Position numbers and translations under genes: made by a program. The notes beneath the pieces were generated by a model. That model was not told where the DNA came from. It saw nothing but the letters and a program-made list of their open reading frames with translations, and did not search any database. A stretch of DNA of 64,000 nucleotides. Source: a virus. Shown here one piece after another: positions 38,039-64,000 of the stretch. The stretch lies in the IMG/VR virus record IMGVR_UViG_3300044617_001156; one strand, given 5' to 3'. Positions within the stretch are counted from its first letter, which is position 1, and every line of letters starts with the position of its first letter.

Positions 38039-38356
38039 ATGGCAAACGGAAGATTAGCAGCAGTTACTCCAACTGCAAATACAGATACTTTATTGTATCA
38101 AGTTCCATCAACATCAACTGCAAGCACTGTAATTAATATCTGCAATACGAATACTTCATCTGCCGGTATTCGCATTTCAATTGAAAACAGTAGCGCAGTA
38201 GGAATTGCATCAACCAACTGTATTGAATTTGATACAATAGTTTCGGCAAAATCTGTTCTTGAAAGAGGTGGAATTGTTTTAGGAAATCAACAGAAACTGT
38301 TCTGCAATTCATCAATTTCTGGTGTTAACTTTATTGTTTACGGGTACGAAGAATAA
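38039..38356 (+). CDS. Small structural beta-sandwich-like protein
   Basis: LLYQVP...INICN...IEFD...LERGGIVL...VYGYEE. Confidence 0.7.
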   Translation: MANGRLAAVTPTANTDTLLYQVPSTSTASTVINICNTNTSSAGIRISIENSSAVGIASTNCIEFDTIVSAKSVLERGGIVLGNQQKLFCNSSISGVNFIVYGYEE

Positions 38357-39711
38357 TGTCTAGAAATTTCGATTCATCAACAAGACTTTCTAATACCGCA
38401 AGTTTTTCTAGGTATGCTCCCTTACAATTAGATTTTGAAAGCCAAATTCTAATTACCTCCAATACAACTTTCATTGTTCCTCCAAATGCTAAGGCAGTTA
38501 AGTTTACTGCAGTAGGTGGAGGACAAGCAGGTGTTGGAACTACTTCTGGACCTGGAGCAGGATATTTTGAAAAAACTTTTTATGGTCCATTTATTGGACT
38601 TACAACAAGTTTTCAATTGACTATTGGAGCTGCAAATGGTGGTAATACAATTCTTAGAGATAGTGCAGGAACCACACTCGCAACAGCATTTGGAGCAACT
38701 GCAATTAGTACTGGTGCAACTGTAGGTGTTGGAGGAACTGCATTTGGAGGTGATCTAAACGCTCAAGGTTCTCCTGGTGGAATAACACCTGGAGTTGGTG
38801 GAGCATCTGGTGGTGCATTAGGCAATAGTGTTTATGATGCAACATATGCTGGTCGATGGGTTTATTTTAAAGAAAGTATTGTAAATGATAGCGTAAGAAA
38901 TTATTTTGTTAATACTTTAGAACTTAGTAGAGGTTCTAGAGTCACAACAATAGGATTTAATACTTTAGGAACTGTTACCGCGCAATATGGTGCTTTGATA
39001 AATCCTTCAGGACCAGGAGCAACTGTTGCTGGTATATTTGCTAATGGTGCAGGTGTTGGCGGTGCCGGTGGTTTTGGTGGAGATGGCGGTACCGGCGGCC
39101 CTGGTGGTTATGGAGGTAATGGCGGCGTTGCACCATATTCTGGCGGTACTGGAGGTTCTGGCGGTTATGGGGGCAGTGGAGGTCCTGGAAGGTCACCAGG
39201 TCCTGGTGGAGCTCCAGGTGGTGCTGGTGGTGCTGGCGGTTATGGTGGTGCCGGCGGAGCAGCATCTAGTGGAGTAGGAGGTCCAACAGGAACTACTCCG
39301 TATACTGGAGGTTTTCCTTCAGGTGGTGCTGGTGGTGCTGGTGGTGCTGGTGGTACTAGTGGTTTTGGTGGTGGAGGCGGCGCAGGAGGTTTTGGTGCTG
39401 CTGGTGGTCCTGGTGCTCCAAGAGTGTCTCGGCCCATGGGTCCTACTGGCGGATCTGGCGGTCCTGGCGGTCCTGGCGGCCCTGGCGGTCCCGGTGGTTT
39501 TGGTGGAGGAGGAGGCAGGGGCGGTGTCGGGGGAGCTGGTGGACTAGGGGGTCCAGGAGCATTATTACCGGCGACACCATATCAACCATCATCTCCAGGA
39601 GCACCAGGAGCAGCGGGTGCTGCTGGTGTCACAGGAACTCCGGGAAACGGAGGCGCTGGAGCAGTATATATTGAATGGACTATGAAAGAACCAAATAAAT
39701 TAGGAGTATAA
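38356..39711 (+). CDS. Glycine-rich (GGX repeat) adhesin-like protein
   Basis: FIVP...AVGGG N-terminus; about 200 aa of GGX repeats; G.V.IEW end. Confidence 0.75.
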   Translation: MSRNFDSSTRLSNTASFSRYAPLQLDFESQILITSNTTFIVPPNAKAVKFTAVGGGQAGVGTTSGPGAGYFEKTFYGPFIGLTTSFQLTIGAANGGNTILRDSAGTTLATAFGATAISTGATVGVGGTAFGGDLNAQGSPGGITPGVGGASGGALGNSVYDATYAGRWVYFKESIVNDSVRNYFVNTLELSRGSRVTTIGFNTLGTVTAQYGALINPSGPGATVAGIFANGAGVGGAGGFGGDGGTGGPGGYGGNGGVAPYSGGTGGSGGYGGSGGPGRSPGPGGAPGGAGGAGGYGGAGGAASSGVGGPTGTTPYTGGFPSGGAGGAGGAGGTSGFGGGGGAGGFGAAGGPGAPRVSRPMGPTGGSGGPGGPGGPGGPGGFGGGGGRGGVGGAGGLGGPGALLPATPYQPSSPGAPGAAGAAGVTGTPGNGGAGAVYIEWTMKEPNKLGV

Positions 39712-39714
39712 GAA

Positions 39715-40335
39715 ATGTCAATTTACGCAGTTATAAACAAAGATACTAATTCTGCTGTAAATATCATTAATGTTGAAGATGAAAAATTCATTTTCTTAGG
39801 TCCTGATGAATATTATGCTCGTGCAAATAGAGCAGTTCGAATTGGAATGCTTTATGATAAACAAACTGGCACATTCCCAGAAGTAGGTGATAGAGGCGAA
39901 CTATTAGATTTAAGAGATGAAGTAGAATCTTTAATTACATCTCACCAATTAAAGATAGCAGAAAATTCTCATATGACTCCAGAACAACTGGAACCTCATA
40001 CCAATTATATAAGTCAATTGCAATCTATTTTGGCACTTGATTCTTATGTCGAAATGAAATCTCAGTTTGATACTATTGGACCCGAACCGGAATTTCCCCC
40101 CAAACCAAGAGAAATCACTCAAGATGTTTTCAGAAGTGTACTGAATCTTTCAGAAAAAATTCTCTGGGATAATCCAGAAATAGGAACAATACAACAAAAG
40201 GCAACAATTAATACTCTTAAGATGGACTTTCCTCATTATGGAGTTGAAAGTATGAGTGATGAACTTTCATTATTGGAGCAAGTTGAATTCTTTACACCAG
40301 AACGACTCACTGAAGTTACACGAGCACTTTCATAA
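39715..40335 (+). CDS. Hypothetical protein (tail-fibre assembly-like N-terminus)
   Basis: YAVI...VNII...IG..YD..TGTF. Confidence 0.6.
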   Translation: MSIYAVINKDTNSAVNIINVEDEKFIFLGPDEYYARANRAVRIGMLYDKQTGTFPEVGDRGELLDLRDEVESLITSHQLKIAENSHMTPEQLEPHTNYISQLQSILALDSYVEMKSQFDTIGPEPEFPPKPREITQDVFRSVLNLSEKILWDNPEIGTIQQKATINTLKMDFPHYGVESMSDELSLLEQVEFFTPERLTEVTRALS

Positions 40336-40353
40336 TTCTTTACTTTCTTTACA

Positions 40354-41031
40354 ATGATACCTAAAATTATTCATCAAACTGGACCTGACAGAAAAAAGTG
40401 GCATTCAATCTGGAAAGAGTGTTCCGAAAGTTGGAAGAACACCTTTCCAGATTTTCAATATATGTACTGGACTGATGATGACATAAGAAATCTAGTCAAA
40501 GAACAATATTCAGAATTTTTAGAATTATACGATGCTTTCCCGCATCATATAATGAGAGTTGATTTTGCAAGATTCTGCATTTTACATTCTTATGGTGGAA
40601 TTTATGCAGATCTCGATATGTATTGTTATAAAAACTTTTATGATTTACTAAAAAGAAACCTTTATATTGCAGAATCTTGGAGTGAATGGGGAGAAAAGGT
40701 TCAGAATTCATTAATGATTTCTACGCCAAATCAAGAGTTCTGGGAAAAATGTATGTTTTTTTCTGGCGTTAAGTTTCTCTCAAATCATCAAAATTATTTT
40801 GATGATTATATTTTAGAATCGTGCGGTCCTAAGTTAATTTCTAGAATCTTAGATCCTTCTGTCAAATTTCTCCCAAAGGAATTGTTTAATCCTAAAGTTG
40901 AAAACCAGTTTAGTTTGTGTTGTGATAATGCAGAAAAATATAAAACTGCTCTCGATGACTTCAATAATTTAAAAAAAGAAAAAACTATTTTTACCAGACA
41001 CTTTTTAACTGGAGAATGGCCTACTAGTTGA
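40354..41031 (+). CDS. Glycosyltransferase, GT32/DxD family
   Basis: MIPKIIHQT...W.D...DFAR..IL...GGIYADLD...GP. Confidence 0.9.
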   Translation: MIPKIIHQTGPDRKKWHSIWKECSESWKNTFPDFQYMYWTDDDIRNLVKEQYSEFLELYDAFPHHIMRVDFARFCILHSYGGIYADLDMYCYKNFYDLLKRNLYIAESWSEWGEKVQNSLMISTPNQEFWEKCMFFSGVKFLSNHQNYFDDYILESCGPKLISRILDPSVKFLPKELFNPKVENQFSLCCDNAEKYKTALDDFNNLKKEKTIFTRHFLTGEWPTS

Positions 41032-41071: not shown

Positions 41072-41707
41072 ATGGCATTTCAGAGTATCTGGTTTGAAAC
41101 CGGATTAAATCAAAAAATCATAGACATCATCGAAGAAGATCTCAAAGATAATTTCGATTCGCAACTACAAGACTCACGAGTTGGTGATGGTGATTATGGA
41201 ACAGTAGATAGAAATAAAAGAAACGCAAAAAATGCATGGGTTCCTACAACACACTGGGTTGCTGGTTTCGTATGGCATTACGTGCAGAGAGCAAATAGAG
41301 AAAACTTTCTTTATGATTTAACAAATATTGATGGAGAATCACTTCAATACACTGTGTATGGCGAAGGTGAATATTATGGTTGGCATAATGATGCGGGTAT
41401 TTCCACGTATTACAAACCAGTATCGTCAGGTAATCGCGGGCATACTGGAGACTGTTTAAGCGACTTTGTAAATGAAAACTGCGAGAAAGTAAGAAAGTTA
41501 TCTTTTAGTTTGCTTTTATCTGATCCTGATACTTATGAGGGTGGTAATCTTCAATTATTAGATGAAACGGGAAAGTCTTATATTTCTCCACGACAAAAAG
41601 GAACCATTATTCTTTTTGATTCTAGAACACAACATAGAGTTCAAAAAGTAACTAAAGGTGTTCGCAAGTCATTAGTTGGTTGGGTAGTTGGTCCACGTTT
41701 TAAATAA
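41072..41707 (+). CDS. 2OG-Fe(II) oxygenase (PKHD/P4H-like)
   Basis: WHND...RKLSFS..LSDP..YEGG...FDS...HRV..VTKG.R.SLVGW..GP. Confidence 0.92.
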   Translation: MAFQSIWFETGLNQKIIDIIEEDLKDNFDSQLQDSRVGDGDYGTVDRNKRNAKNAWVPTTHWVAGFVWHYVQRANRENFLYDLTNIDGESLQYTVYGEGEYYGWHNDAGISTYYKPVSSGNRGHTGDCLSDFVNENCEKVRKLSFSLLLSDPDTYEGGNLQLLDETGKSYISPRQKGTIILFDSRTQHRVQKVTKGVRKSLVGWVVGPRFK

Positions 41708-41722: not shown

Positions 41723-42439
41723 ATGGCAGAACAAATGACACAACAAGAACTTGACTATCAAGAAAGAGTCAATTCTGGAACATCACCAACAAATAATAAG
41801 GAGTTTGATAAGAATGGATACCTAGTCTTAAGAAATCTATGGGATCCAAAAGATCTTTACTGTGAACCACCAACAATCAAAGGTCAATATAATTACTTTG
41901 GAAAAATTGATAAGTTTAACCATAATCCTGCAGAAAATCAGGTAGAAGGTTCAACTTCAAGGTATTATTATCCACCTTATAAGTACGCCCATTCGCAAAT
42001 TCGAATGAAACTTGAAAAAGCGATTGGCAAAAAACTTTATAATACTTATTATTATGACCGCTTTTATAATCCAGGGCAAGCACTGACTAAACATGCAGAT
42101 CGTCCAGCATGTGAGATTTCAGTTACAGTCCATGTGGGATCTAATATCAAAACTCCATGGCCTATTTGGATCAAAACACCGGACATTTACACGAGTGATG
42201 AAAAAACCAATGTTATAAGGAGAGGCGAAAATCGCTCAGTGATTTTAAATCCTGGTGATGGTATGATTTACAAAGGATGTGAAAGACCTCATTGGAGAGA
42301 TCCAATGCCAACCGAATATCATAGAACTTGGTATGGTAAGAAAACAGAAAAGGAAGGTTTATATTATCATCAAATCTTTTTCCACTATGTTCTTGCCGAT
42401 GGCATTCGTTCACATTATGCAGGTGATTCTGGAAATTAA
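41723..42439 (+). CDS. 2OG-Fe(II) oxygenase-like protein
   Basis: HADRPACEISVT...PGDG.IY.G...HWR...QIFFHYV. Confidence 0.8.
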   Translation: MAEQMTQQELDYQERVNSGTSPTNNKEFDKNGYLVLRNLWDPKDLYCEPPTIKGQYNYFGKIDKFNHNPAENQVEGSTSRYYYPPYKYAHSQIRMKLEKAIGKKLYNTYYYDRFYNPGQALTKHADRPACEISVTVHVGSNIKTPWPIWIKTPDIYTSDEKTNVIRRGENRSVILNPGDGMIYKGCERPHWRDPMPTEYHRTWYGKKTEKEGLYYHQIFFHYVLADGIRSHYAGDSGN

Positions 42440-42444
42440 TTTTT

Positions 42445-43266
42445 ATGAACTTTATACCATTAACAAGTTTACCTAGAAGTGGATCAACTTTACTTCTTTA
42501 CATTCTAAATCAGAATCCAAAATTTACAATTGGACCTGATTCTGAAATCGGTCAGTTACTGAATATTAATAAAGAATTTATATGTAGTAGTATATCACAT
42601 TTCCAATTACCCCACGAAACCGTTTCGGATTGTTTTTACAATTTTTGTAGGTCTGGGGTAGATTCGTGGATTAAAACAATCTCAGAACCAGAAACTATTT
42701 TCGTAGATAAGTCTAGACACTGGTTAAAAGATTTGGATTATATTTTTCAACTTTTCCCAAAATTAAAAATAGTAGTTACAATCAGAGATTTAAGGTCCGT
42801 CATAAATTCCTTCGAAAAAATATCACAAGATTCTTTATTCGTTAATAGATCAGATTCATTTCATACAATACACGAAGATCTACAATACCAAAGAGTAGAT
42901 AATATTTTAAATTTAGATTATCTCAGAGATGGATTATTTTCGCTAAGACAACTCATAGATATTCCAAAAAAATATAAGAACCAAATCTTTATTTCCAGAT
43001 ACGAAGATCTTATTGAAGACCCACAAAATCAGTTAAATGAGATTTATGATTTTCTTGGACTTGATCGATACACACATGATTTTAATAATTTAACTCAAGA
43101 TTTTTATAATGATAATCCATATCAACCCTTTGGACGCCATAAGATAAAATCAAAAATAGAAAAATCAAACACAGAAAGTTCTCTAAGATTAAGAGAGGAT
43201 ATTCAAGATATGATTTTTAGTCATTATCACTGGTACTTTAAGGAATTCTATCCAGAAAAATTATGA
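42445..43266 (+). CDS. Sulfotransferase
   Basis: SLPRSGSTLL (5'-PSB motif), DKSR.W, RD...S, RYEDL..P. Confidence 0.9.
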   Translation: MNFIPLTSLPRSGSTLLLYILNQNPKFTIGPDSEIGQLLNINKEFICSSISHFQLPHETVSDCFYNFCRSGVDSWIKTISEPETIFVDKSRHWLKDLDYIFQLFPKLKIVVTIRDLRSVINSFEKISQDSLFVNRSDSFHTIHEDLQYQRVDNILNLDYLRDGLFSLRQLIDIPKKYKNQIFISRYEDLIEDPQNQLNEIYDFLGLDRYTHDFNNLTQDFYNDNPYQPFGRHKIKSKIEKSNTESSLRLREDIQDMIFSHYHWYFKEFYPEKL

Positions 43267-43841
43267 ATATTGTCAAACTATATGATACATTTCCCATTTA
43301 TTTGATTAAAGATTTCGAACAAGTTGAAGATAGTTTAAGAATTGCTTTAATGGCAGTTGTTTTAGAAAATAAAGTTCGAAACCATAGAGGAAAAGGTGGT
43401 TCTTTTTTAATTGATGAAGACTATAAAAATTTCTTCAAAAGTCTTTATAGTAAATTTTTCGAATTCTCAAAAACTATATTTGGAGATTTTACCACCTCAA
43501 ATAATAACGAAAGTTGTTGGTCTTATGCAAGTAATAAATTCGATCATGGTCCAGGATTATTACATAATCACCGGAATACTTCAACAATAAATTCGGTTTA
43601 TTATTTGAATGTTCCACAAACAGTATCAATATCTAATGGATCAATATCTTTTATATTAAATGGGGAGACATTTTCATATAAACCTGAAAATGGAGATCTA
43701 TTAATTTTTCCAAATTATCTAAATCATAAGATTAATTTTCTAGACGATGAAGAATATAGAATTTCTATTAATATGGAAATTAAATGTGAAGAGTCTTCAG
43801 AAGAATTATTTTCAAAAGTGGATATTTTAAATATTACATAA
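43263..43841 (+). CDS. Putative 2OG-Fe(II) oxygenase (HxH type)
   Basis: HNH...SVYYL...P..GDLLIFP.YL.H...RISI. Confidence 0.8.
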   Translation: MNIVKLYDTFPIYLIKDFEQVEDSLRIALMAVVLENKVRNHRGKGGSFLIDEDYKNFFKSLYSKFFEFSKTIFGDFTTSNNNESCWSYASNKFDHGPGLLHNHRNTSTINSVYYLNVPQTVSISNGSISFILNGETFSYKPENGDLLIFPNYLNHKINFLDDEEYRISINMEIKCEESSEELFSKVDILNIT

Positions 43842-43862
43842 ATACCTAAAAAGTATAAGATA

Positions 43863-45941: not shown

Positions 45942-45956
45942 ATACCTAAAAAACTT

Positions 45957-47027
45957 ATGGCTAACCTAAGAGTTGATACCATCAAAAATAGAAGTGGTGA
46001 TAATGGACCAATCTTTGAAGGAAACCTAAGTTTTTCTTCTACCTCACATATGGTTCTACCAAAAGGAACAACAGGAGAAAGACCTGTTGGAGTTTCCACC
46101 GGTTCTATGAGATATAATACAGATACCAGTCTTGTAGAGTATTGGAATGGAACTTCTTGGTCTTCCGTAAGTACTTTTGATAGTAGTTTCCGTGGTGTCT
46201 TTGGTGGTGGTAGTCCAATCTCTACAATAGATTATATTCTGATTGCTGGAAGTGGTGGCAATTCAAATAACTTCGGAGACCTTACTGTACCACGCTATAA
46301 TTTAGCAGCGTGTTCTTCAAGCACTCGCGGTGTCTTTGGTGGTGGTGTTCCTACGGTAAACGTAATTGACTTCATTACAATAGCATCTACAGGAAACGCA
46401 ACTGACTTTGGCGATTTAACTGTAGCACGTGGATATCCTGCTTCATGTTCATCAAGTACTAGAGGTGTCTTTGGTGGTGGTTATGCTCCATCATCATCAA
46501 ACGTAATTGACTTCATTACAATAGCATCTACAGGTAATGCCACTGACTTTGGAGACCTTACTGTAGCACGTCAATATCTTGCTGCATGTTCCTCAAGCAC
46601 TCGTGGTGTCTTTGGTGGGGGTCTTGCTGGACCAACAGCATCAAACGTAATAGACTTCATTACAATAGCATCTACAGGAAACGCAACTGACTTTGGAGAC
46701 CTTACAACAACATCTTATTATGTATCATCTTGTTCCTCAAGCACTAGAGGTGTCTTTGGTGGTGGCGCTCCTGCGACAAACACAATAGATTACATCACTA
46801 TAGCAACTACAGGAAATGCTATTAACTTTGGAAACCTTACAGTCCCACGTTATGCGACAGGATCTTGCTCTTCAAGCACTCGCGGTGTCTTTGGTGGTGG
46901 TGTTCCTGCGGCAAACATAATAGACTACATTACCATAACAACCACAGGAAATGCTATTAACTTTGGAACCCTTAGTGTAGCACGTTCTAGTCTTGCTGCA
47001 TGTTCAGATTCACACGGTGGTCTCTAA
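45957..47027 (+). CDS. Six-repeat putative beta-propeller fibre-tip protein
   Basis: LPKGTTGERP..GSMRYN..EYWNG followed by 6 repeats; ends SDSHGGL. Confidence 0.85.
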   Translation: MANLRVDTIKNRSGDNGPIFEGNLSFSSTSHMVLPKGTTGERPVGVSTGSMRYNTDTSLVEYWNGTSWSSVSTFDSSFRGVFGGGSPISTIDYILIAGSGGNSNNFGDLTVPRYNLAACSSSTRGVFGGGVPTVNVIDFITIASTGNATDFGDLTVARGYPASCSSSTRGVFGGGYAPSSSNVIDFITIASTGNATDFGDLTVARQYLAACSSSTRGVFGGGLAGPTASNVIDFITIASTGNATDFGDLTTTSYYVSSCSSSTRGVFGGGAPATNTIDYITIATTGNAINFGNLTVPRYATGSCSSSTRGVFGGGVPAANIIDYITITTTGNAINFGTLSVARSSLAACSDSHGGL

Positions 47028-53444: not shown

Positions 53445-53462
53445 TCTAAAAAGTATAATAAG

Positions 53463-54843: not shown

Positions 54844-55179
54844 ATGGCCGCAGTCGTAGCAGAGAACTTTAATCTTCAGCAAGGAGAGGACTTTGAACGG
54901 GTCTTTACGATTAAGAACCCAGACCAGTCTTTAAAGAACCTCTCAGGGTACTCTGGTACTGCTTATATGGCGAAGTATGCGAGTGATGCTACAACATATC
55001 CTTTTACTGTGGGTATTGGTACAACCACCAGTAAGATTACAATTTCAATGGCGAGTACAATTACTGCAACATTAGACCCTGGACGTTATTATTATAATAT
55101 CATTACCATTAACGGAAGTTCCAAAAAAGCAAAAGAAAGAGAAGGTTCAATCATTGTAAATGGGTCTGTTCTGAGTTAA
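54844..55179 (+). CDS. Small structural protein (Ig-like baseplate/fibre connector)
   Basis: QGEDF...NLSGY...T..L.PGRYYY.I...EG.I.V. Confidence 0.7.
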   Translation: MAAVVAENFNLQQGEDFERVFTIKNPDQSLKNLSGYSGTAYMAKYASDATTYPFTVGIGTTTSKITISMASTITATLDPGRYYYNIITINGSSKKAKEREGSIIVNGSVLS

Positions 55180-55220: not shown

Positions 55221-58200
55221 TTGAAAAAGAAATTATTATCACCCACTGAACTCAAGCAACTTCACGCTCAGCAAGAAGAGCAGAAGAAAATTCTTGCTAC
55301 CCAAAAATTAGAAGAAGAGAAAAATAAGAAATTAGTATCACCAAAGGAACTTCTAGACCCAGTAGTAGAACCCGTACCAATCGTTGAAAGTGTAGAAGTA
55401 TCTGAGGTTCCAAAGGACCCGATTGAAGTTCTGCGTGAGCGTATAGAAGAAGTACAATATTCAATACCAGAACCAAAGGATTATGACGAAGAGATTGCTT
55501 ATCTAGAAGCAATCCTTTCTACTAAATTAAATTCAAGTGACTTAAATCTTGAACCAATTCAGAATAGACTTTATGAACTAAAGGAAGAGATTTTAAATCT
55601 TCCTGAGGTTAAGTACTATGATGATGAGATTTCAGCACTTCAAGAACAACTGAACTCCATCGTAATTCCAGAAGTCAGATATTATGATGAGGAGATTTCA
55701 AGTCTTCAGCAGGAAATAAATGCGATTGAAATTCCTGAAGTTAAGTATTATGATAAAGACGTTCGGGATATTCACGAAAGACTAGACCTCATTAAACTAT
55801 CTGAAGATAATACCTTTCAGAAGCATGAAAGTATTCTGAATGAACTTAAAACTCTTACAAAGGAACTTACAAATAACTTAGAGCAGTTATACATTCCTGA
55901 AGAGTTTGATGCGTCTGAACTTGAAAATCATATCTCTACACTTCAAGAGAATGTAGTAGAAATCAAGAATGAATTATCTTCACTACCTGAAGTGAAGTAT
56001 TATGAGAATGAATTAACTGAACTTTCTCAGATGATAGAGAATGTAAGGAATTCTATTCCAAGCATTCCAGAAATTAAATACTATGATACTGAACTTCAAG
56101 ACTTAAGTTCTTTAATTGAAGAAGTTCGTAAGAATATTCCTGAACTTCCTGAGGTTCGTTATTATGAAAATGAAATCTCAGTACTGGAACAGAAGATTTT
56201 AGACGTTGAAAATCAAATTCCAGAGCTTCCAGAACTTCCTGAAGTTAAGTATTACGATAAAGAGATTACTCAACTTGAAGATAATGTTGTTTCTGTTAAG
56301 AAATCAATCAGCGAACTGAAGAAGTTAGTTGATGGTATTGAAATTCCAGTACCAACTGATTGGTCTTCAGATATTCAATCCATTTATAGAGAGATTGAAA
56401 AACTTAAGGAAGTACCAGTCCTTGAAGAAAGTACAGATCCCTTAGTACCATTAGATCAAAAGTTCGCAACTCTTGATGATCTCCAAAATCATTATCGGTT
56501 GTTTATCAATCGTATTCAACAACAACTCGCATCACTTGGTGGTGGTGGAGAAACACGTCTAGAGTTTTTAGATGATATAGACCGTACATCAGCAAAGACT
56601 GATGGTTACGTACTGTCTTATCAGGCATCTACTGGTAAGTTCATTGGTGTTCCGATGAGTGGCGGTGGTGGTGGTGGTGGTTCAGGCATCTCCACTTATG
56701 CTGATGTTGCTGGAATTGCTACCTATGCTACCAGTGCTGGAGTATCAACTTATGCTTCGATCGCAGGTATTGCTACTTATTCAAGTACTTCTGGTATCGC
56801 CACTTATGCGACAACTGCTGGTGTAGCAACTTACTCATCAGTATCTGGAATTTCCACTTACTCAGGCATTGCTGGTATCGCCACATATGCTACTACTGCT
56901 GGAATTGCTACCTATTCTGGTATTTCTGGTATTGCTACTTATGCCTCTAATGCAGGAGTAGCAACTTATTCTACATTCAGTGGTATTGCTACTTATTCCT
57001 CTAATGCAGGCGTAGCAACTTACTCAGGCATCGCTGGTGTTTCCACTTATTCAGCAACGGCTGGAATTGCTACCTATGCTTCAACCGCAGGTATCGCCAC
57101 TGTTTCTCAAGGACTAACAGGAACTCCTAGTATTTCTGTAAGTTCATTAACAGCATCTAATGCTTCTTTTAGTGGTATTGTAACCGCATCAAATAGTGCT
57201 GTAATCAAGACAGGAACAGCAACAACGGCATTAATTGTAGAAGGTGACGCAAGAGTTATTGGTATTCTTACGATTGGTACTTCCAGTATTACCTTGGATG
57301 GTACTATTAACCAAGTCAATGTAGGCACAGGTGTTACACTTCATCATACCAATGGAGTTCAAGTAGGAGGGAATACTCTTCATACTACTGGTCTCACACT
57401 TAATCATATTAATGTCTCAGGTATTTCTACAATATCTCAGTTAGACATCACTAATGGTATCAATGTAAGTGGAGTAATTAGCGCAACTGAATTTATTGGA
57501 AACTTTAGTGGTAATTCTTCAACAGCATCTTATGCTACTAATTCTGGTATTGCTACTTATGCCTCTAGTGCTGGTGTATCAACATACTCAAGTACTTCTG
57601 GTATCGCCACTTATTCAACAGCGGCTGGTATTGCTACTTATGCTTCTACAGCAGGTATCTCCACATACTCTACAACCGCTGGTGTAGCAACATATTCACC
57701 AGTATCTGGAGTGTCCACTTATTCAAATACTGCGGGTATAGCGACTTATTCTTCAGTATCTGGAATTGCTACCTACGCTATCAACGCGGGTATCTCCACT
57801 TATGCTTCTAGTGCTGGAATTGCTACTTATTCAAGTACTTCTGGTATTGCTACTTACGCTACCAATGCTGGTATATCAACTTACGCATCTACATCTGGTG
57901 TTTCTACTTATTCAGAAACTTCAGGTATCTCCACATATGCTAGCACTGCGGGAGTATCCACTTATGCTTCTAATGCTGGTGTAGCAACTTACTCATCAGT
58001 ATCAGGAATTGCTACTTATTCAACATCAAGTGGTATTGCAACTTATGCTTCATCAGCAGGCATAGCGACTTATGCACAAACTGCTGGTATTGCTACCTCT
58101 GCTGGAGCCGCAACGACAGCAACTTATCTTGCTGATGCTGCAAATATAATTACAGGAACAATTAATAAGGACAGAATTAGCACCACAAATGCTCTGACTA

Positions 58201-59984
58201 TTCTTGGTGACCTGTATGTAAGCAATAATATTTCTTTCGGTGGAACAGCAACTCAACTTAATACGCAGCAACTACAAATTTCTGATGCTGATATTGTATT
58301 AGGTATTGGAACCTCATTCAGTCCCACAGATAACACCGCAAATCACGGTGGTGTTGCAGTTGCTTCCACAGAAGGAACACCACTTGTAGATTTAAATATT
58401 GTTCCTGGTGAAACAAACCCATCCACATATAAGAAAATTATGTGGTTCAGGGGTGATACGATTGGTACTGGCCTAACTGATGCTTGGTTATTTAACTATG
58501 GTGTTGGTATTGGTTCTACACAAGTTCCCAATGGTGTAAGACTTGCTGCAGGTGCAGTTCAATTTACACAAAATGATTTAGCAGTCGTAAGAAATGTAAA
58601 CGCATCTGGTATTGTAACCGCATCAAATAGTGCTGTAATCAAAGCAGGAACCGCAACAACTGCTCTCATTGTTGAAGGCAACACCAGAATTGTTGGTATT
58701 CTCACCATTGGTAATTCTAGTATCACCTTAGATGGTGATATTAACCAAGTTAATGTTGGTTCTGGGGTTACACTTCACCATACCAATGGAGTTCAGGTAG
58801 GTGGAAATACTTTACATACTTCTGGTCTCACACTTAATCACGTCAATCTTTCTGGTATTACAACATTAGGTACTGTAAAGATTGCTTCAGGTATCGTTAC
58901 CGCAACTTCAGGTGTTGTTACTTATTATGGTGACGGTCAATATCTACAAAACATTCTTTCTGGAGTTGGTGTTGCTACTGCTGGAGGACTGGTAGGCACT
59001 GGGGCAACTATTTTAGATTTCCGTGGTGCTGGAATTTCTACAGTTACAGTTTCTGCTGGTATTGCAACCATCAATATAGTTGGTGGTGGAGGTGGTGGAG
59101 CAGTTAGTATTGGAACTCAAGCACCACCATCACCAACAAATGGTGACTTATGGTACAGTCCTGATTACGGAAGAACTTTCGTTTGGTATGATGAAGTAGC
59201 ATTAGGAATTGGTTCTACCTCAGTATGGGTTGATGCAGCTCCATTCAATAACTTCAAAGAAGAAGAATTAACTTCAGGAAAAGCAACAAATTCATTTACT
59301 GCAACTGGAAATCAATCACTATTCCCAGTAAGTTATACTGTTGGATATATTGATGTTTATTTGAATGGTATTCGCTTAAGTGATACTGAGTTCGTAGCAA
59401 CTAATGGTTCATCAATAACCTTAACTCAACCAGCATCATCTGGAGATATTATAGATGTCGTTCAATATACATTAGGCATTGGTGCTACTGGACCACAAGG
59501 TCCTCAGGGTCCTCTATCTCAAGTTGTTGGTATTACTTCAAGCATCGTACATTACCCATTAATCGTCTCTGGTGTTGGTAGTGTAACCGCATCCGTCACA
59601 ACAACATCCAATTACTTTAGTTTCACTCCATCCTCAGGAACTTTATCCGTAAATCAATTAAGTGTTGTTGGTGTAGCAACCGCAACTGATTTTAACTCAA
59701 CATCAGACATTAATCTGAAGGAAAATGTTAAGATTATTGATAACGCAGTTGATAAAGTAAATTCTATATCTGGTATTACCTTTAACTGGAAAGAAACTAA
59801 GAAACCTTCTGCTGGTGTAATTGCACAAGAAGTAGAAAAAGTTCTCCCAGAAATCGTACATGAAAATGATGGAAATAAAACTCTGAATTATAATGGTCTT
59901 ATTGGTCTTCTGATTGAAGCAGTCAAAGAGCAACAAGAGGAAATAAATAATTTGAAGACTAGACTTGAACGTTTGGAAGGATAA
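55221..59984 (+). CDS. Long tail fibre: PEVKYYD coiled-coil repeats, 9-aa AGIATYAST repeats, C-terminal S74 chaperone
   Basis: Repeats visible in the translation; FNSTSDINLK...GVIAQE...NYNGLIGLLIEAVKE. Confidence 0.88.
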   Translation: MKKKLLSPTELKQLHAQQEEQKKILATQKLEEEKNKKLVSPKELLDPVVEPVPIVESVEVSEVPKDPIEVLRERIEEVQYSIPEPKDYDEEIAYLEAILSTKLNSSDLNLEPIQNRLYELKEEILNLPEVKYYDDEISALQEQLNSIVIPEVRYYDEEISSLQQEINAIEIPEVKYYDKDVRDIHERLDLIKLSEDNTFQKHESILNELKTLTKELTNNLEQLYIPEEFDASELENHISTLQENVVEIKNELSSLPEVKYYENELTELSQMIENVRNSIPSIPEIKYYDTELQDLSSLIEEVRKNIPELPEVRYYENEISVLEQKILDVENQIPELPELPEVKYYDKEITQLEDNVVSVKKSISELKKLVDGIEIPVPTDWSSDIQSIYREIEKLKEVPVLEESTDPLVPLDQKFATLDDLQNHYRLFINRIQQQLASLGGGGETRLEFLDDIDRTSAKTDGYVLSYQASTGKFIGVPMSGGGGGGGSGISTYADVAGIATYATSAGVSTYASIAGIATYSSTSGIATYATTAGVATYSSVSGISTYSGIAGIATYATTAGIATYSGISGIATYASNAGVATYSTFSGIATYSSNAGVATYSGIAGVSTYSATAGIATYASTAGIATVSQGLTGTPSISVSSLTASNASFSGIVTASNSAVIKTGTATTALIVEGDARVIGILTIGTSSITLDGTINQVNVGTGVTLHHTNGVQVGGNTLHTTGLTLNHINVSGISTISQLDITNGINVSGVISATEFIGNFSGNSSTASYATNSGIATYASSAGVSTYSSTSGIATYSTAAGIATYASTAGISTYSTTAGVATYSPVSGVSTYSNTAGIATYSSVSGIATYAINAGISTYASSAGIATYSSTSGIATYATNAGISTYASTSGVSTYSETSGISTYASTAGVSTYASNAGVATYSSVSGIATYSTSSGIATYASSAGIATYAQTAGIATSAGAATTATYLADAANIITGTINKDRISTTNALTILGDLYVSNNISFGGTATQLNTQQLQISDADIVLGIGTSFSPTDNTANHGGVAVASTEGTPLVDLNIVPGETNPSTYKKIMWFRGDTIGTGLTDAWLFNYGVGIGSTQVPNGVRLAAGAVQFTQNDLAVVRNVNASGIVTASNSAVIKAGTATTALIVEGNTRIVGILTIGNSSITLDGDINQVNVGSGVTLHHTNGVQVGGNTLHTSGLTLNHVNLSGITTLGTVKIASGIVTATSGVVTYYGDGQYLQNILSGVGVATAGGLVGTGATILDFRGAGISTVTVSAGIATINIVGGGGGGAVSIGTQAPPSPTNGDLWYSPDYGRTFVWYDEVALGIGSTSVWVDAAPFNNFKEEELTSGKATNSFTATGNQSLFPVSYTVGYIDVYLNGIRLSDTEFVATNGSSITLTQPASSGDIIDVVQYTLGIGATGPQGPQGPLSQVVGITSSIVHYPLIVSGVGSVTASVTTTSNYFSFTPSSGTLSVNQLSVVGVATATDFNSTSDINLKENVKIIDNAVDKVNSISGITFNWKETKKPSAGVIAQEVEKVLPEIVHENDGNKTLNYNGLIGLLIEAVKEQQEEINNLKTRLERLEG
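55465..56280 (+). repeat. (L/I)PEV(K/R)YY(D/E) helical repeats, about 8 copies
   Basis: Seen in the translation. Confidence 0.85.
56683..58130 (+). repeat. 27-bp (9-aa, [AS]G[IV][AS]TY[AS]xx) tandem arrays in two blocks (about 56683-57110 and 57520-58130)
   Basis: Seen in the translation and DNA. Confidence 0.9.
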
Positions 59985-59986: not shown

Positions 59987-60724
59987 ATGGGAAAGGCACG
60001 TCAGTCAGCAAATCTAGTCAGCGACGATAATATCTTCGTAGATGTTAGTAACGATAGAGTTGGTATTGGAAGCACTGCACCAACCACAAAACTAGATGTA
60101 AATGGAACAGTCAAAGCAACTAGTTTCAGTGGTAATGGAAGTGGATTAACTAATCTATCAGTATCTTATGTTCCTACTGCTGGAGTTGCTACTTATTCTT
60201 CAACAGCAGGAGTATCTACAGTATCACAAGGTCTTACTGGAACTCCTAATATCTCAGTTGGTTTCGCCACAGTATCAAATAATCTTAATGTAAGTGGAGT
60301 TTCAACATCAAATGAAGCTAGATTTTTATCAGTTGCTGAAAGAATTGTAAGAGTTGATGGAAATACAGTAAGTATTGCTTATACAACCACTGGAGCAAAT
60401 ATTGGTTTATGTACCAATCCAACGGGTAATATTACATTAGCAGTTACTGGAATTCCAACTGATAGTTCTTTTGATAACCACGCCATTTCTTTTTCAATTT
60501 TCATCAATCAAACTGGGACGGCAAGAAGTTGTACGGCAGTGACTTTGAATGGAGTACCAGAAACTATTCGTTGGGCTGGTGGTTCGTTAGCAGCTGCTAT
60601 TGTCGGTGTTACGACATTAAGAGGATATGATATTTACAATTTCACAGGAATTAATACAATTGGTTCCGCAAGTACGGCAGCAAACTATGAAGTTCTCGGT
60701 GTTGTAAATGGAGGATTTAGATAA
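59987..60724 (+). CDS. Tail-fibre-associated protein
   Basis: NDRVGIGSTAPTTKLDVNG; shares TAGVATYS...VSQGLTGTP with the upstream fibre. Confidence 0.75.
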   Translation: MGKARQSANLVSDDNIFVDVSNDRVGIGSTAPTTKLDVNGTVKATSFSGNGSGLTNLSVSYVPTAGVATYSSTAGVSTVSQGLTGTPNISVGFATVSNNLNVSGVSTSNEARFLSVAERIVRVDGNTVSIAYTTTGANIGLCTNPTGNITLAVTGIPTDSSFDNHAISFSIFINQTGTARSCTAVTLNGVPETIRWAGGSLAAAIVGVTTLRGYDIYNFTGINTIGSASTAANYEVLGVVNGGFR

Positions 60725-60727: not shown

Positions 60728-61720
60728 ATGTCTCCACTTATTTCTAGGATTAGTTCTGCTGGTATTATTAATTCGACAAGTGGATTTAATGTAGGAAGAA
60801 GAAGACCTGGTTTAGCACTGGGTCTTTATGATTTTACGACATTTACTTTTACTAACGGAACACAAACTGGACCAACTGGACCTGCATTAGCAAATCTTTT
60901 ATCAGCATATAATACTGGTACAAATCCTTGGTTGAATAATACCGCATATTTTAATACTACGAGTGGAATTCAATTATGGACTGTTCCTAAAACTGGTTCA
61001 TATACAATTGATGCTTATGGTGCTGCGGGTGGTAATGGTTCTCCAGGAACCGGCGGAGGTGCTGGTGCTCGCATGATGGGAACATTTAGCCTAACTCAAG
61101 GTGATAAAATAAGAATACTTGTCGGTCAAATGGGAGCATCTTCTGGTTTAGTTGGTGGTGGAGGTGGAGGAACTTTCGTCATGAAAGAAACTGGAACTGT
61201 AACATCAGACATTTATGTAATCGCTGGTGGTGGTGGAGGAGGATATTATTCTTCTTATAATAGTGGGTCGCAGACAGGAACAACATCATCGACAGGACAA
61301 ACCGGAAGAGATGGAGGATATGGTAGAAATGCTGGTTCTGGTGGAGCAGGTCCAAATGGAGGAAGTATCTCTCCAAATTTAAACGATGGTGGAGGAGCAG
61401 GTGGCGGATTAACTGGTAATGGAGCAAGTAGTCCATATTCAGCACAAGCAGCTGCTGGTTCTGGTGGAAATTCTTTCAGTAATGGTGGTAATGCAGCCAC
61501 TGGTAAGAGTTACCCCGGTGGTTTTGGTGGTGGTGGTTCCGGAGATTGGTATTCTTGGACCGGCGGCGGTGGCGGAGGAGGATATGGCGGTGGAGGTAGT
61601 GGATCTTATTATGGAAACGGTGGAGGTGGAGGTTCCTATAATAATGGAACCAGTCAAACAAATACATCTGGAGCAAGGTCAGGTGCTCATGGACAAGTAA
61701 TCATAACCTTCGTTTCTTAA
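60728..61720 (+). CDS. Glycine-rich adhesin-like protein (ALK/LTK-like Gly-rich domain)
   Basis: GIQLWTVP.TG.Y.I.A.GA.GG...G.GA...LVGQ.G...GGGGGTFV...IAGGGGG. Confidence 0.8.
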   Translation: MSPLISRISSAGIINSTSGFNVGRRRPGLALGLYDFTTFTFTNGTQTGPTGPALANLLSAYNTGTNPWLNNTAYFNTTSGIQLWTVPKTGSYTIDAYGAAGGNGSPGTGGGAGARMMGTFSLTQGDKIRILVGQMGASSGLVGGGGGGTFVMKETGTVTSDIYVIAGGGGGGYYSSYNSGSQTGTTSSTGQTGRDGGYGRNAGSGGAGPNGGSISPNLNDGGGAGGGLTGNGASSPYSAQAAAGSGGNSFSNGGNAATGKSYPGGFGGGGSGDWYSWTGGGGGGGYGGGGSGSYYGNGGGGGSYNNGTSQTNTSGARSGAHGQVIITFVS

Positions 61721-61769: not shown

Positions 61770-62849
61770 ATGTCTTTAATTCGCTCAAGATTAGTAGGAG
61801 ATGTTGTCTCCGGTTCGACATTTGCCGGTATTGTAACAGCAACTGGTTTTCAAGGGAATTTAGTAGGCAATGTAACTGGTAATGTAACTGGAAACGTCAC
61901 TGGAAATGTAACGGGTAACCTTACTGGAAACGTCACTGGAAATGCAAATATAGGAATTCTTACAGTAACATCAACAATTACTGTAGGTAATAGCACTGGT
62001 AACGCAGGACAATATCTCCAGTCTACTGGAGTTGGTGTTACCTGGGCAGATATCAGTACTTTTATAGGTGGGCGTGATTCTATTCTAATTGGTTTTAATT
62101 CTGTAGGTCTTAGAAGTGATAGTGGTAATGGAAGATTAGAAGTATTTGGAACTGGCAATTTTAGAGTGTATGACTCTCCAGGAACATTTGTAGTTAATCC
62201 TGGCATTTCATCAATTCGAGTAAGAGTTGTTGGTGCTGGTGGTAATGGAAGTCCATCAACATTAGGTCCAAGCGGCAACCCCGGAGTCAGCGGTGGTGGT
62301 GGAGGAGGTGGAGGATATGCCCATAAAGTAATCACTAGTTTCTCAGCACCAAGAACTTATACTGTTACCGTAGGAACTCCTGGTGGAGGAACAAGTTCTT
62401 TTGGAAGTGAGGTTTCGGCAACTGGCGGTTCAGTTGGATCAATTATCTTTGGAGGAACAGGTGGTTCTGGTATCAATGGAGATTTTAATGCAACAGGAGC
62501 TACAGGTCCATCAGTTTCACCAGGTGTGTTCCCACCAACGGGCGTTGGAGGAGGCACCGGTGCACCTGGCGGTGCTGCAGGAACTCAAAAAGGAAATGGT
62601 TCTGGTATCAATGTTCCGTCACCAGCAACCCCATCAACTACAAGACGTTTTATAAATAGATTTCCTTTTGATATTTTTGAAAGTGAATTAAGCGTCGGTA
62701 ACGGTGGCAGCTCCGGTTCTGGTGGCGGCCCATCTTTATCTGGCAGCCCAGGAGGAATTGGTGGCGGTGGTGGAGGTGGAGTTGGAGGTTTTCTTCAAGC
62801 GGGTGCTGGTGGAGCCGGTGGTCGCGGTATTGTAATCGTAGAATGGTAA
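61770..62849 (+). CDS. Glycine-rich tail adhesin-like protein with GNVT repeats
   Basis: (GNVT)n near 61866-61945; PGTFVV.PGI..IRVRVVGAGG...GGGGGYA; G.VIVEW end. Confidence 0.8.
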   Translation: MSLIRSRLVGDVVSGSTFAGIVTATGFQGNLVGNVTGNVTGNVTGNVTGNLTGNVTGNANIGILTVTSTITVGNSTGNAGQYLQSTGVGVTWADISTFIGGRDSILIGFNSVGLRSDSGNGRLEVFGTGNFRVYDSPGTFVVNPGISSIRVRVVGAGGNGSPSTLGPSGNPGVSGGGGGGGGYAHKVITSFSAPRTYTVTVGTPGGGTSSFGSEVSATGGSVGSIIFGGTGGSGINGDFNATGATGPSVSPGVFPPTGVGGGTGAPGGAAGTQKGNGSGINVPSPATPSTTRRFINRFPFDIFESELSVGNGGSSGSGGGPSLSGSPGGIGGGGGGGVGGFLQAGAGGAGGRGIVIVEW

Positions 62850-62862
62850 GGAGGTAAAAACC

Positions 62863-63408
62863 ATGCGTTACGCACTCATCGAAAATAATGTAGTCAAAGA
62901 TGTCTTTGAAGAACCAAATGGTTTTTCTATTCAAGAATGTTTTTGTCCTGAATTAGCATCTAAGTATATTCCGTGCCCTATTAATATTGCAGAGGGTGAC
63001 TTTTATGACCCCAACACCAACCAATTTGACGAAAACCCAGATAAGAAATTCCCATCTTATGCTGATTGGTTTAATTCAGTAACAAATAAGAGAAGTCAAC
63101 TCTTATCATATGCTTTGGAATTAAATCCAACAATCAATGGTCTTCCAATGAATTTTTCAAGACTCACAGAATATAAAACTGCATTGAGTCTTGTAATTTC
63201 TGGTGTTGACGATGTAGTAGAAATTGATAGAAAAGAATTTACTGGAGATGATTTTAAATTAATGATTAATGCTCTTAAGAAGTTCAATGAAGATAAGCAA
63301 TCAGTTGAACTAGACCACTTAAATAAAATCAATTCTTTAAATCATGCATCACATATTGATGCTTATGATTTCACCACTGGATGGCCAGAGACAACCATTT
63401 CAATCTGA
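62863..63408 (+). CDS. Tail-fibre assembly chaperone-like protein
   Basis: MRYALIENNVV...; C-terminal I.AYD...GWP; AGGAGG RBS. Confidence 0.6.
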   Translation: MRYALIENNVVKDVFEEPNGFSIQECFCPELASKYIPCPINIAEGDFYDPNTNQFDENPDKKFPSYADWFNSVTNKRSQLLSYALELNPTINGLPMNFSRLTEYKTALSLVISGVDDVVEIDRKEFTGDDFKLMINALKKFNEDKQSVELDHLNKINSLNHASHIDAYDFTTGWPETTISI

Positions 63409-63436
63409 ACTAGATAATACATCTTACATTTAAATT

Positions 63437-64000
63437 ATGATTTCGTCATATTTTACCGAACAGAAATTTGACCTCAATAAGATACCACCAGTCATAAATC
63501 CTGAGGAATTTAAACATAAAACTCAGGAATTTTGGTATCTAAAACATCATGACTACCAACCATTTGTATTCGTAGATGATGTATTTGGTGAAGATGAGGT
63601 CAATCAAATCATCAAACTTGGAAATCTTTATGTAGAAGAACAAGCATATACTGGCGGAACAATTGGTGCAATCAACAAAGAAATTCGTGCATGTAAACTT
63701 GCTTGGATGTTTCCAAATAACTACACTGAGTGGATTTATCGAAAAATTACTGATGTAGTCAATCAAGTTAATGAGCAGTACTTTAAGTTTGATTTGACCA
63801 AATTGGAAACTTTACAATTTACAAAGTATAAGGAAGAAGAAAGTGGATTTTATGAGAAACACACTGACCCAATACCAGGTCAATATCTACCAGAAAATCG
63901 TAAGTTAAGTCTTGTCGTTCAACTTTCAGACCCCAGTGAGTATGAAGGTGGAGACTTATGTTTGCATACAGCAAAGGACCCTACAGTTATTGAAAAGAAA
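63437..64000 (+). CDS. 2OG-Fe(II) oxygenase (PKHD-type), truncated by the window end
   Basis: Hand-translated: LQFTKY...FY..HTD...RKLS.VVQLSDPSEYEGGDL. Confidence 0.88.
   Translation, partial: MISSYFTEQKFDLNKIPPVINPEEFKHKTQEFWYLKHHDYQPFVFVDDVFGEDEVNQIIKLGNLYVEEQAYTGGTIGAINKEIRACKLAWMFPNNYTEWIYRKITDVVNQVNEQYFKFDLTKLETLQFTKYKEEESGFYEKHTDPIPGQYLPENRKLSLVVQLSDPSEYEGGDLCLHTAKDPTVIEKK

Follow-up and report, generated by a model that had tools for sequence, protein, structure and literature searches.

Results

The viral record IMGVR_UViG_3300044617_001156 provides a stretch of 64,000 nucleotides (hereafter the window, meaning the whole of it) in which, from position 36353 to the end, genes for oxygenases, glycosyltransferases, sulfotransferases and a radical S-adenosylmethionine (SAM) enzyme lie among genes for tail fibres and other putative host-binding proteins. 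We describe these genes, named here by their lower coordinate, and argue that they may constitute a fibre-tailoring module with which the phage would modify its own host-binding proteins; as a genomic module the set is well supported, while its chemistry is predicted. Judging by gene content, namely psbA (194-1258), T4-type genes for baseplate and tail (10993-25508) and, at 9997-10953, a gene for a single-strand DNA-binding protein of the gp32 type, and by weak protein matches that were in every case to Synechococcus or Prochlorococcus myoviruses, the window comes from a T4-like cyanomyovirus, and the enzyme region is the hyperplastic tail-fibre region of that phage. The DNA between 40000 and 54000 has no near-identity match among 50,697 phage records. 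About 200 related phage fragments served for comparison (loci labelled L followed by a number), among them the metagenome contig L120, which has the same gene order as the window at about 90% protein identity.

A first-pass annotation of the window had listed six 2-oxoglutarate (2OG)-Fe(II) oxygenases, two glycosyltransferases, two sulfotransferases and one radical SAM enzyme, and all eleven were upheld by Pfam matches, motifs and family profiles. Five of the oxygenases, both sulfotransferases, the glycosyltransferase 40354 and the radical SAM/SPASM enzyme pass Pfam cut-offs, and the catalytic motifs are intact in the oxygenases that resemble prolyl 4-hydroxylases (P4H), the sulfotransferases, the DXD-type transferase and the radical SAM enzyme. 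A simple hydropathy test detected a membrane-like segment or an export signal in none of the enzymes. The genes are separated by a few bases or overlap, the start of oxygenase 43263, for instance, lying 4 nt inside the end of sulfotransferase 42445, and, as the annotation had also stated, are interleaved with fibre and adhesin genes: two fibres with a Peptidase_S74 domain (36353 and 55221), Gly-rich proteins (38356, 60728 and 61770) and four β-propeller proteins (43863, 45957, 50105 and 53463). All lie on the plus strand except a cassette of three enzyme genes between 51224 and 53384.

Three oxygenases are P4H-like and match the Pfam family 2OG-FeII_Oxy_3 (PF13640, cut-off 27 bits): those of 41072-41707 (211 residues; 54.1 bits, E 3e-14), of 51224-51856 on the minus strand (210 residues, catalytic residues kept; 53.5 bits, E 5e-14) and of 63437-64000, which is truncated by the end of the window (32.8 bits, E 1.4e-7; H142-x-D144). 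In the 41072 protein, H105-x-D107, H188 and R198, corresponding to the iron triad and the basic 2OG-binding residue, are invariant across nine homologues, and the closest solved structure is the PKHD-type hydroxylase PiuC. Peptidyl-proline is the suggested substrate of these enzymes because Pro-rich loops accompany adjacent P4H-like genes, as described below; this is the sole support for that substrate, and it is indirect. The remaining oxygenases are of other types. Those of 43263-43841 (192 residues; E 7.4e-10) and of 52749-53384 on the minus strand (211 residues; E 1.5e-22, and 88 bits on TIGR02466, above its cut-off) belong to 2OG-FeII_Oxy_5. Both lack H-x-D/E and have H-x-H-x-N-S with a distal His, so that their metal site may be non-canonical.

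The sixth oxygenase, encoded at 41723-42439 (238 residues), is less firm than the other five. The window protein matches phrog_2954 (E 1.5e-58) and showed no similarity to known 2OG families, either in Pfam or in a profile search of the PDB; one of nine homologues matches 2OG-FeII_Oxy_2 weakly (E 0.015), and an hhalign comparison with the P4H-like alignment aligned the H-x-D stretch alone, at a probability of 2.7%. We nevertheless take it as a probable 2OG oxygenase because H124-x-D126, H190 and R192 are invariant across homologues and because its protein-atlas neighbours are P4H-like 2OG dioxygenases (0.91-0.93). GenBank and PHROGs label this family 'ferrochelatase'. The label looks like a misannotation, given the invariant H-x-D...H..R, the P4H-like atlas neighbours and the lack of any ferrochelatase match in Pfam. 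The family corresponds to T4-GC 615 of Sullivan et al. 2010 (PMC3037559) and is large in cyanophages; we counted more than 2300 homologues and 153 phage records, including SSM2_036 of phage S-SM2 (L124, 14001-14732).

The first glycosyltransferase (40354-41031, 225 residues) is of the DXD type, with DLD at residues 86-88, and scores 65 bits on Gly_transf_sug (cut-off 23; E 9.6e-18). The second (47976-48707, 243 residues) gave only a weak Anp1 match as a single sequence. An alignment of its family, however, revealed the invariant residues D72-x-D74, E200-D201 and H225, and the family profile matches the glycosyltransferase A197 of Sulfolobus turreted icosahedral virus (STIV; the best solved match and a weak one, E 3e-4 over about 80 residues), GlfT2 and Mnn9, as expected of a GT-A fold; Anp1 or GT2 was matched by 9 of the 18 family members.

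The two sulfotransferases (42445-43266, 273 residues, E 1.5e-21, and 49095-49898, 267 residues, E 1e-18) score 78.1 and 68.9 bits on Sulfotransfer_3 (PF13469, cut-off 27), and each has a PRSGST loop for 3'-phosphoadenosine-5'-phosphosulfate (PAPS) at residues 10-16 and an R-D/H...S motif near residues 110-125. The closest solved structures to 42445 are the protein-tyrosine sulfotransferases TPST1/2 (E 2e-6), aligned over the PAPS-binding half alone (residues 5-123), and the sole NCBIfam match is to the carbohydrate sulfotransferase NoeE, at 29 bits against a cut-off of 500. Since the closest solved relatives act on protein tyrosine, carbohydrate sulfation has no preference over protein sulfation. 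General Pfam scans of 28 proteins encoded between 36353 and 64000 returned no APS kinase or ATP sulfurylase family match.

The radical SAM enzyme (51814-52752, minus strand, 312 residues) matches Pfam Radical_SAM (E 1.2e-6) and SPASM (E 1.6e-13; 51 bits against a cut-off of 21.5). Eight homologues, with identities down to 55%, all keep C28, C32 and C35 of the CxxxCxxC motif. Because five C-terminal Cys residues are invariant (C239, C258, C259, C297 and C300), not the seven of the SPASM motif, the C-terminal domain is possibly a single-cluster, Twitch-like one. BtrN, an aminocyclitol dehydrogenase, is the closest solved structure. We could not assign the enzyme to a characterised subfamily, as all 14 NCBIfam matches, which span peptide maturases and cofactor maturases, are far below cut-off (for example, sulfatase_rSAM at 22 bits against 349). 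Its family is confined to marine viral or metagenome contigs, and a search among cultured phages yielded no relative apart from one weak gut-phage match.

The four propeller proteins appear to be the most plausible targets of these enzymes. An AlphaFold2 model of the 356-residue product of 45957-47027 (mean pLDDT 84) was matched by Foldseek to the Kelch domains of Keap1 and KLHL12 (E 1e-18; TM-score 0.82-0.88 on target), and the model shows a Kelch fold of six four-stranded blades. The other three comprise 43863-45941, in which the propeller follows a fibre-like N-terminal part (692 residues; matches to phrog_18673, tail fiber, E 3e-18, to phrog_10330, virion structural protein, E 3e-13, and to phrog_19111), 50105-51220 (371 residues; phrog_19111, E 3.5e-30, and six repeats read from the sequence) and 53463-54749 (428 residues; phrog_19111, E 5e-26). 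At a threshold of E 0.01, none of the four matches a Pfam family, the Kelch models included; the repeat follows a highly regular consensus of its own, CSSSTRGVFGGG...IDYITIASTGNATDFGDL. By the known architecture and naming convention of Kelch domains, the variable loop after the GG doublet would be the B-C loop on the ligand-binding face. The four proteins together have 24 repeats, and a Pro had been counted in 21 of the 24 loops after F/S-G-G-G; our reading of the repeats gave the identical count. Each blade also carries an invariant CSSSTR. We considered this motif as a target of a radical SAM enzyme resembling sulfatase maturases and rejected it, as its spacing is unlike C/S-x-P/A-x-R, the motif is equally common in loci without the radical SAM gene, and its Cys is less conserved in loci with that gene.

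To compare loops among phages, we extracted the residues between the R-G-x-x-G-G-G and I-D-Y-I-T-I strands, using these as anchors, from 239 distinct propeller proteins. A Pro was present in 80% of 346 loops from loci with a P4H-like gene and in 25% of 723 loops from loci without one. Expressed per loop residue, Pro made up 10.8% with the gene and 3.3% without it; outside the loops, it made up 2.5% in both groups. Base composition does not explain the difference, because the loci with a P4H-like gene have the lower mean G+C content (37% versus 47%), which disfavours Pro codons. Most of these Pro residues occupy the third loop position, flanked as [S/T/A/N/G]-P-[S/T/G/A], a position taken by Gly or Ser in loci without the oxygenase; the typical patterns are xTPSxxNV with the oxygenase and xTGSxSNV without it. 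Propellers of the type found in the cultured siphovirus S-SKS1 are very different in sequence and have P4H-like genes beside them, and here too Pro occurs in 68 of the 81 loops. Conversely, the low-G+C loci L006, L033 and L205, which have a sulfotransferase, a glycosyltransferase, a radical SAM enzyme or a 41723-like oxygenase and no P4H-like gene, are Pro-poor. Among 150 representative neighbour genes of loci without a P4H-like gene, 2OG families were absent from the 25 commonest Pfam families. One further feature of the loops may be a lead. Tyr occupies the first position after GGG at a frequency of 0.30 in loci with a sulfotransferase (for example L081) and 0.17 overall, a comparison confounded by relatedness; given TPST-like sulfotransferases, this residue is a possible site of tyrosine sulfation.

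The first-pass annotation had named a lack of genomic linkage between the enzymes and adhesins in related phages as a refutation of its proposal; we found such linkage in many diverged loci. In a survey anchored on the propellers (78 IMG/VR loci out of more than 574 matches), a relative of 47079, a gene for an all-helical protein, directly follows the last propeller gene in 55 of the 66 loci with room for it. A 47976-type glycosyltransferase lies within two genes of the 47079 relative in 28 of 49 loci, and a member of the 48727 family, which encodes a small Pro-rich protein, is present in 24 of the 49. The order propeller array, 47079 family, 47976 family, 48727 family is kept at 25-70% protein identity and across several tail types, with or without a sulfotransferase, and in some propeller loci a tape-measure gene or an ordinary tail-fibre gene is located just upstream. 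In many of these loci the glycosyltransferase accompanies propellers where there is no oxygenase; its action therefore does not depend on hydroxyproline (Hyp).

The other enzymes showed similar associations. The minus-strand oxygenase/radical SAM/oxygenase cassette touches a propeller array in all 15 loci with available flank, and a propeller gene comes directly after the relative of oxygenase 51224 in 13 of the 15. In L033 and L205 the order is different (propeller, 47079-like gene, glycosyltransferase, radical SAM enzyme, oxygenase, sulfotransferase), so that the radical SAM gene is situated between the two transferases and lacks the two oxygenases that flank it in the cassette; the oxygenase gene between the radical SAM enzyme and the sulfotransferase in L205 is 41723-like (203 residues). 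The gene for a distant homologue of the radical SAM enzyme (39% identity) directly follows a cadherin/Big_9 adhesin-like gene, whose end it overlaps. All 11 relatives of sulfotransferase 49095 were found near propellers, and sulfotransferase genes often adjoin a gene for an Oxy_5-type oxygenase (the window, L120, L150, L151, L180 and L186), an arrangement that fits the hydroxylate-then-sulfate logic of Iyer et al. (PMC2938197). The 41072 and 41723 oxygenase families are adjacent in about 75 of 80 further IMG/VR loci and in S-SM2, and the pair is always within or at the end of a fibre module, even in phages without true propellers. Lastly, S-SKS1 (Llyrvirus; host Synechococcus WH7803) combines propellers (SWZG_00001, SWZG_00289, SWZG_00291 and neighbours), a sulfotransferase, three oxygenase homologues and a related fibre. 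Its sulfotransferase is 46% identical to 49095 and likewise lies between propeller genes, and a segment of the window fibre 55221 is 57% identical to its 5-kb fibre gene. The linear S-SKS1 record (HQ633071; L002 and L003) is cut inside a propeller gene (SWZG_00001, marked incomplete), and thus the propeller/enzyme module spans both ends; at 4850-6200 of L002 about 1.4 kb of propeller-like coding sequence is without annotation.

Late-type motifs had been noted ahead of several of the enzyme genes, and our analysis of the motifs agrees with this: the plus-strand enzyme genes have the fibre-type late motif in common. The motif NATAAATA occurs at 25 sites on the plus strand and three on the minus strand, mostly 20-50 nt ahead of plus-strand starts; the sites at 41032, 47048 and 48699 precede 41072, 47079 and 48727. 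A longer form, ATAAATANNTAAAAA, is present at eight sites where 0.82 would be expected. It precedes fibre 36353 (as ATAAATAAGTAAAAA, 36308-36322), three of the four propellers (43838-43852 ahead of 43863, 45938-45952 ahead of 45957 and 53438-53452 ahead of 53463), the gene 54844 that leads the long fibre (54825-54839) and 48727 (48700-48714). The last of these opens a run that continues through sulfotransferase 49095 and 49899 to propeller 50105. This extended late-promoter-like motif, ATAAATA-NN-TAAAAA, exceeds the usual T4-type late box in length and is specific to fibre and propeller genes. The minus-strand cassette has no full NATAAATA; instead, a TAAATA core is found with a sigma-70-like TTGTGC-17-TATACT.

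The helical protein (47079-47972, 297 residues), seen in the window and in 61 related loci, comes after the propeller arrays in most of them and was modelled by AlphaFold2 as long helices (pLDDT 80). A PDB profile search gave a chance match alone, Foldseek searches with the model gave generic coiled coils alone, and an atlas search returned unnamed viral clusters only. It was not an enzyme by any test applied, and it could be an assembly chaperone or an attachment adaptor for the propellers. The small Pro-rich protein of the conserved module is encoded at 48727-49077 (116 residues). Between sulfotransferase 49095 and propeller 50105, the gene 49899-50120 encodes a free-standing, 73-residue copy of the propeller N-terminal motif (G-x-x-R-[FY]-x...E-x-Y-x-G-x-x-W) and overlaps the TTG start of 50105 by 16 nt; relatives of it are found in propeller arrays, and it could represent a separate adaptor or what is left of a recombination junction. 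In many loci that are not from cyanophages (L045, L054, L059, L066, L093 and others), a conserved open reading frame (ORF) of about 125 codons stands directly before the propeller array.

The remaining genes of the region, all on the plus strand, encode fibres, Gly-rich proteins and small proteins. The first fibre-like protein (36353-37804, 483 residues) has a C-terminal intramolecular chaperone domain (Peptidase_S74, E 1.6e-17), as does the long tail fibre (55221-59984, 1587 residues; E 1.1e-14), which is preceded by a 111-residue protein whose relatives adjoin fibre genes (54844-55179) and followed by a 245-residue fibre-associated protein with relatives in the fibre modules of many loci (59987-60724). 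The Gly-rich protein of 38356-39711 (451 residues, 32% Gly and 7.5% Pro, no Pfam match), encoded immediately upstream of the glycosyltransferase/oxygenase/sulfotransferase block, is by its composition a candidate substrate; its GPG triplets, which occur in runs (GGPGGPGGPGGPGG), include X-Pro-Gly, the minimal motif for prolyl hydroxylases of the collagen type. Upstream of the corresponding gene, L120 has an additional P4H-like oxygenase and a CTP_transf_3 cytidylyltransferase, of the kind used in nucleotide-sugar activation (4020-5274), both of which are absent from that place in the window. Two further Gly-rich proteins follow the long fibre (60728-61720, 330 residues, 28% Gly, with ALK_LTK_GRD at E 6e-5, below cut-off; and 61770-62849, 359 residues, with Gly_rich_2 at E 1.1e-9). 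A 206-residue protein (39715-40335) with no Pfam or PHROG match is kept in L120, and a 181-residue protein with no Pfam match (62863-63408) precedes the truncated oxygenase 63437.

Discussion

The hypothesis that best accounts for the composition and the neighbourhood of these genes is that the phage enzymes modify the phage's own host-binding proteins, and we estimate the probability of this reading at about one half. The enzymes, soluble and expressed late, would act in the cytoplasm of the infected cell on newly made host-binding proteins before these are assembled. The targets would be the four Kelch-like propellers and probably also the Gly-rich fibres. The P4H-like oxygenases 41072, 51224 and 63437 would act on the position-3 Pro of the post-GGG loop and hydroxylate it; the GT-A enzyme would glycosylate the propellers on Ser, Thr or Hyp; the sulfotransferases, which in many cases have an Oxy_5-type oxygenase as partner, would sulfate a hydroxyl on the protein or on its glycan; and the radical SAM enzyme would oxidise or cross-link a residue or a sugar. 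The likely outcome would be that receptor specificity is altered or that the exposed loops are protected. This is in essence what the first-pass annotation had proposed. Its general idea gains from the genomic linkage and from the association of loop Pro with P4H-like genes; glycosylation by the 47976 family does not need Hyp, and carbohydrate is not preferred to protein as the sulfate acceptor.

The individual steps differ in strength. Prolyl hydroxylation of the B-C loops is, from the sequence comparisons, the best-supported of them. Glycosylation by the 47976 family is suggested by its tight linkage to the propellers, which is the evidence for that step. An ordered pathway in which one and the same Pro is hydroxylated, glycosylated and then sulfated is conjecture. 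One could extend the hypothesis and suppose that the position-3 Pro of every blade is hydroxylated and that the loops are then O-glycosylated and/or sulfated, so that the propellers would parallel, in a bacterial virus, the Hyp-glycomodules of plant cell-wall proteins, with phage P4H-like, GT-A and TPST-like enzymes as the writers; we consider this stronger version doubtful. CsCl-purified virions of the cyanomyovirus S-SCSM2R have been reported to contain an Ofd1-like prolyl dihydroxylase (PMC12801897), which lends the tailoring hypothesis indirect support.

Several observations weigh against the hypothesis. Chemical evidence of such a modification was not found for any cyanophage in the literature that we searched. 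2OG oxygenases are numerous, too, in T4-like cyanophages that lack propellers, and other roles have been proposed for the cyanophage enzymes, in 2OG/NtcA signalling (PMC3037559) and in secondary metabolism (PMC2938197). Conversely, the 47976 glycosyltransferase module is widespread without oxygenases, and the closest cultured homologue of sulfotransferase 42445 (37% identity, in S-SCSM1) has genes for recombination and replication around it. A 47079-family tree, of which we used the clade structure and not the label statistics because two rows had been mislabelled by duplicate removal, places all T4-like loci with oxygenases in one well-supported clade; hence no more than about two independent lineages, both of them phages of marine Synechococcus-type hosts, carry the Pro association. 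That the propellers are virion parts is likewise deduced, from the PHROG matches of 43863 and, in other types of phage, from their position after a tape-measure or tail-fibre gene. The acceptors of the sulfotransferases and of the radical SAM enzyme cannot be read from sequence; the closest solved relatives, TPST and BtrN, were matched over cofactor-binding parts alone. Finally, it is awkward that an O2-sensitive radical SAM enzyme is encoded next to oxygenases that need O2, and in a host that itself produces it.

One could envision three alternative explanations. The first is that the transferases, and perhaps the oxygenases, modify glycans or proteins of the host surface and so block superinfection or the loss of progeny on debris. 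The genes would stay beside the adhesins since receptor specificity and receptor masking must match. Such an arrangement has a parallel in phage T5, where llp adjoins the receptor-binding gene. The linkage of the glycosyltransferases and sulfotransferases to adhesin genes fits this explanation equally well; propeller arrays elsewhere have additional GT1 or GT2 enzymes, a nucleoside diphosphate-sugar epimerase and a GDP-mannose dehydratase as neighbours, and cyanophage genes for glycosyltransferases and lipopolysaccharide are usually read as modifiers of the host surface (PMC12801897; PMC3037559). We think that it is unlikely, however, as it leaves unexplained why the propeller loops of the phage itself contain Pro in the cases where a P4H-like gene adjoins them, the hydropathy test gave no membrane segment or export signal in any of the enzymes, and promoters of the fibre type would come late for superinfection exclusion.

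The second explanation, on which we place no greater weight, is that the hyperplastic region tolerates insertions and that unrelated auxiliary genes have accumulated there and are co-inherited without acting on the fibres; candidates would be oxygenases tied to 2-oxoglutarate and nitrogen signalling of the host, or enzymes that tailor small molecules. The number of 2OG oxygenases in cyanomyoviruses irrespective of propellers, the non-fibre roles proposed for them (PMC2938197, PMC3037559) and the place of the S-SCSM1 sulfotransferase in a replication module all accord with accretion, and as the T4-like oxygenase loci form a single clade, their common order may reflect descent. Accretion would not, however, be expected to preserve the order propeller/47079/glycosyltransferase/48727 at 25-70% identity across tail types, to bring the same mix of genes together in other orders (L033 and L205) and in a siphovirus, S-SKS1, or to keep the radical SAM cassette in contact with a propeller array in 15 of 15 loci, and a shift in Pro that is specific to the loops is also unexpected. 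A third explanation, in which the minus-strand cassette 51224-53384 serves to make or tailor a ribosomal peptide or a small molecule and has no connection with the propellers, is suggested by the peptide-maturing or sugar-oxidising activity common among SPASM/Twitch enzymes, by BtrN as the closest solved relative, by NCBIfam matches that span peptide and cofactor maturases (all far below cut-offs) and by the opposite strand with no full NATAAATA box, yet it seems to us improbable, as no short precursor-like ORF was seen inside the tightly overlapping cassette, the virus- and marine-restricted radical SAM family always adjoins propeller or adhesin-like genes, its distant members included, and in L033 and L205 the gene lies inside the propeller module between the glycosyltransferase and the sulfotransferase.

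If the fibre-tailoring hypothesis is true, then its consequences would reach beyond this phage. Few unexplained genes are as common in marine cyanophages as those for 2OG-Fe(II) oxygenases, and on the stronger version given above these abundant orphans, together with the rare cyanophage sulfotransferases, would gain their first substrates. If some of these oxygenases, together with phage glycosyltransferases and sulfotransferases, modify the phage's receptor-binding proteins, the ocean's most abundant virus-host systems would set host range by an enzymatic layer in addition to fibre sequence, and sequence-based prediction of host range would have to include that layer. In the literature searched, we found no paper that described the propeller/helical protein/glycosyltransferase module or that connected the 2OG oxygenases of cyanophages with fibre proteins.

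Comparison with known systems

The nearest precedent is the set of bacterial gene neighbourhoods in which Iyer, Abhiman, de Souza and Aravind (2010; PMC2938197) found 2OG dioxygenases and sulfotransferases with collagen-like or tail-collar proteins, and for which they predicted that the co-encoded protein is hydroxylated and the hydroxyl then sulfated. The window resembles these in having genes for Gly-rich and fibre-type proteins in the company of P-loop sulfotransferase genes and several genes for 2OG oxygenases. It differs in that theirs are bacterial operons, known as predictions and often including a PAPS synthetase, which was not among the window genes scanned, whereas the setting in the window is the fibre module of a phage, which also encodes Kelch propellers, a radical SAM enzyme and two glycosyltransferases. 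For the dioxygenase arrays of cyanophages, the same authors proposed the synthesis of secondary metabolites instead.

Glycosylation of virions by phage-encoded glycosyltransferases has been reported for mycobacteriophages (Freeman et al. 2023, as cited in PMC12801897). As in those phages and in STIV (A197; PDB 2c0n), a virus-encoded transferase of the GT-A type stands beside structural genes in the window. The mycobacteriophage targets, according to the citing account, are capsid and tail-tube proteins with chemically demonstrated glycans; in the window, the presumed targets are Kelch propellers and the evidence consists of genes alone.

The P4H-like oxygenases have counterparts in the P4H of Paramecium bursaria chlorella virus 1 (PBCV-1), a chlorovirus, and in the PKHD types (PiuC/YbiX and Ofd1/Tpa1), with which they have in common the 2OG-FeII_Oxy_3 domain and the H-x-D...H...R/K active site. 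Their identity to the solved members is low (70 residues aligned at E about 1e-5). Viral repeats rich in Pro are the substrate of the PBCV-1 enzyme. The sulfotransferases similarly belong to the Sulfotransfer_3 family of TPST1/2 and have its RSGST/T PAPS loop, and differ in that the PAPS-binding half aligns alone. The propellers are like those of Keap1 and KLHL12 in having six blades, a GG doublet before the variable loop and TM-scores of 0.82-0.88, and unlike them in lacking a Pfam Kelch match and in that their genes stand in tandem as paralogues, with a gene for a dedicated helical protein after them. Kelch-like domains are also present in 'virion structural proteins' of the jumbo phages Noxifer, PhiPA3 and Phabio.

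Thus, glycosylation of phage virions, a viral GT-A enzyme and a viral prolyl hydroxylase were already known, and bacterial hydroxylation with sulfation was predicted in 2010 (PMC2938197). As in the glycosylated mycobacteriophages, the predicted transferase genes of the window are linked to structural genes.

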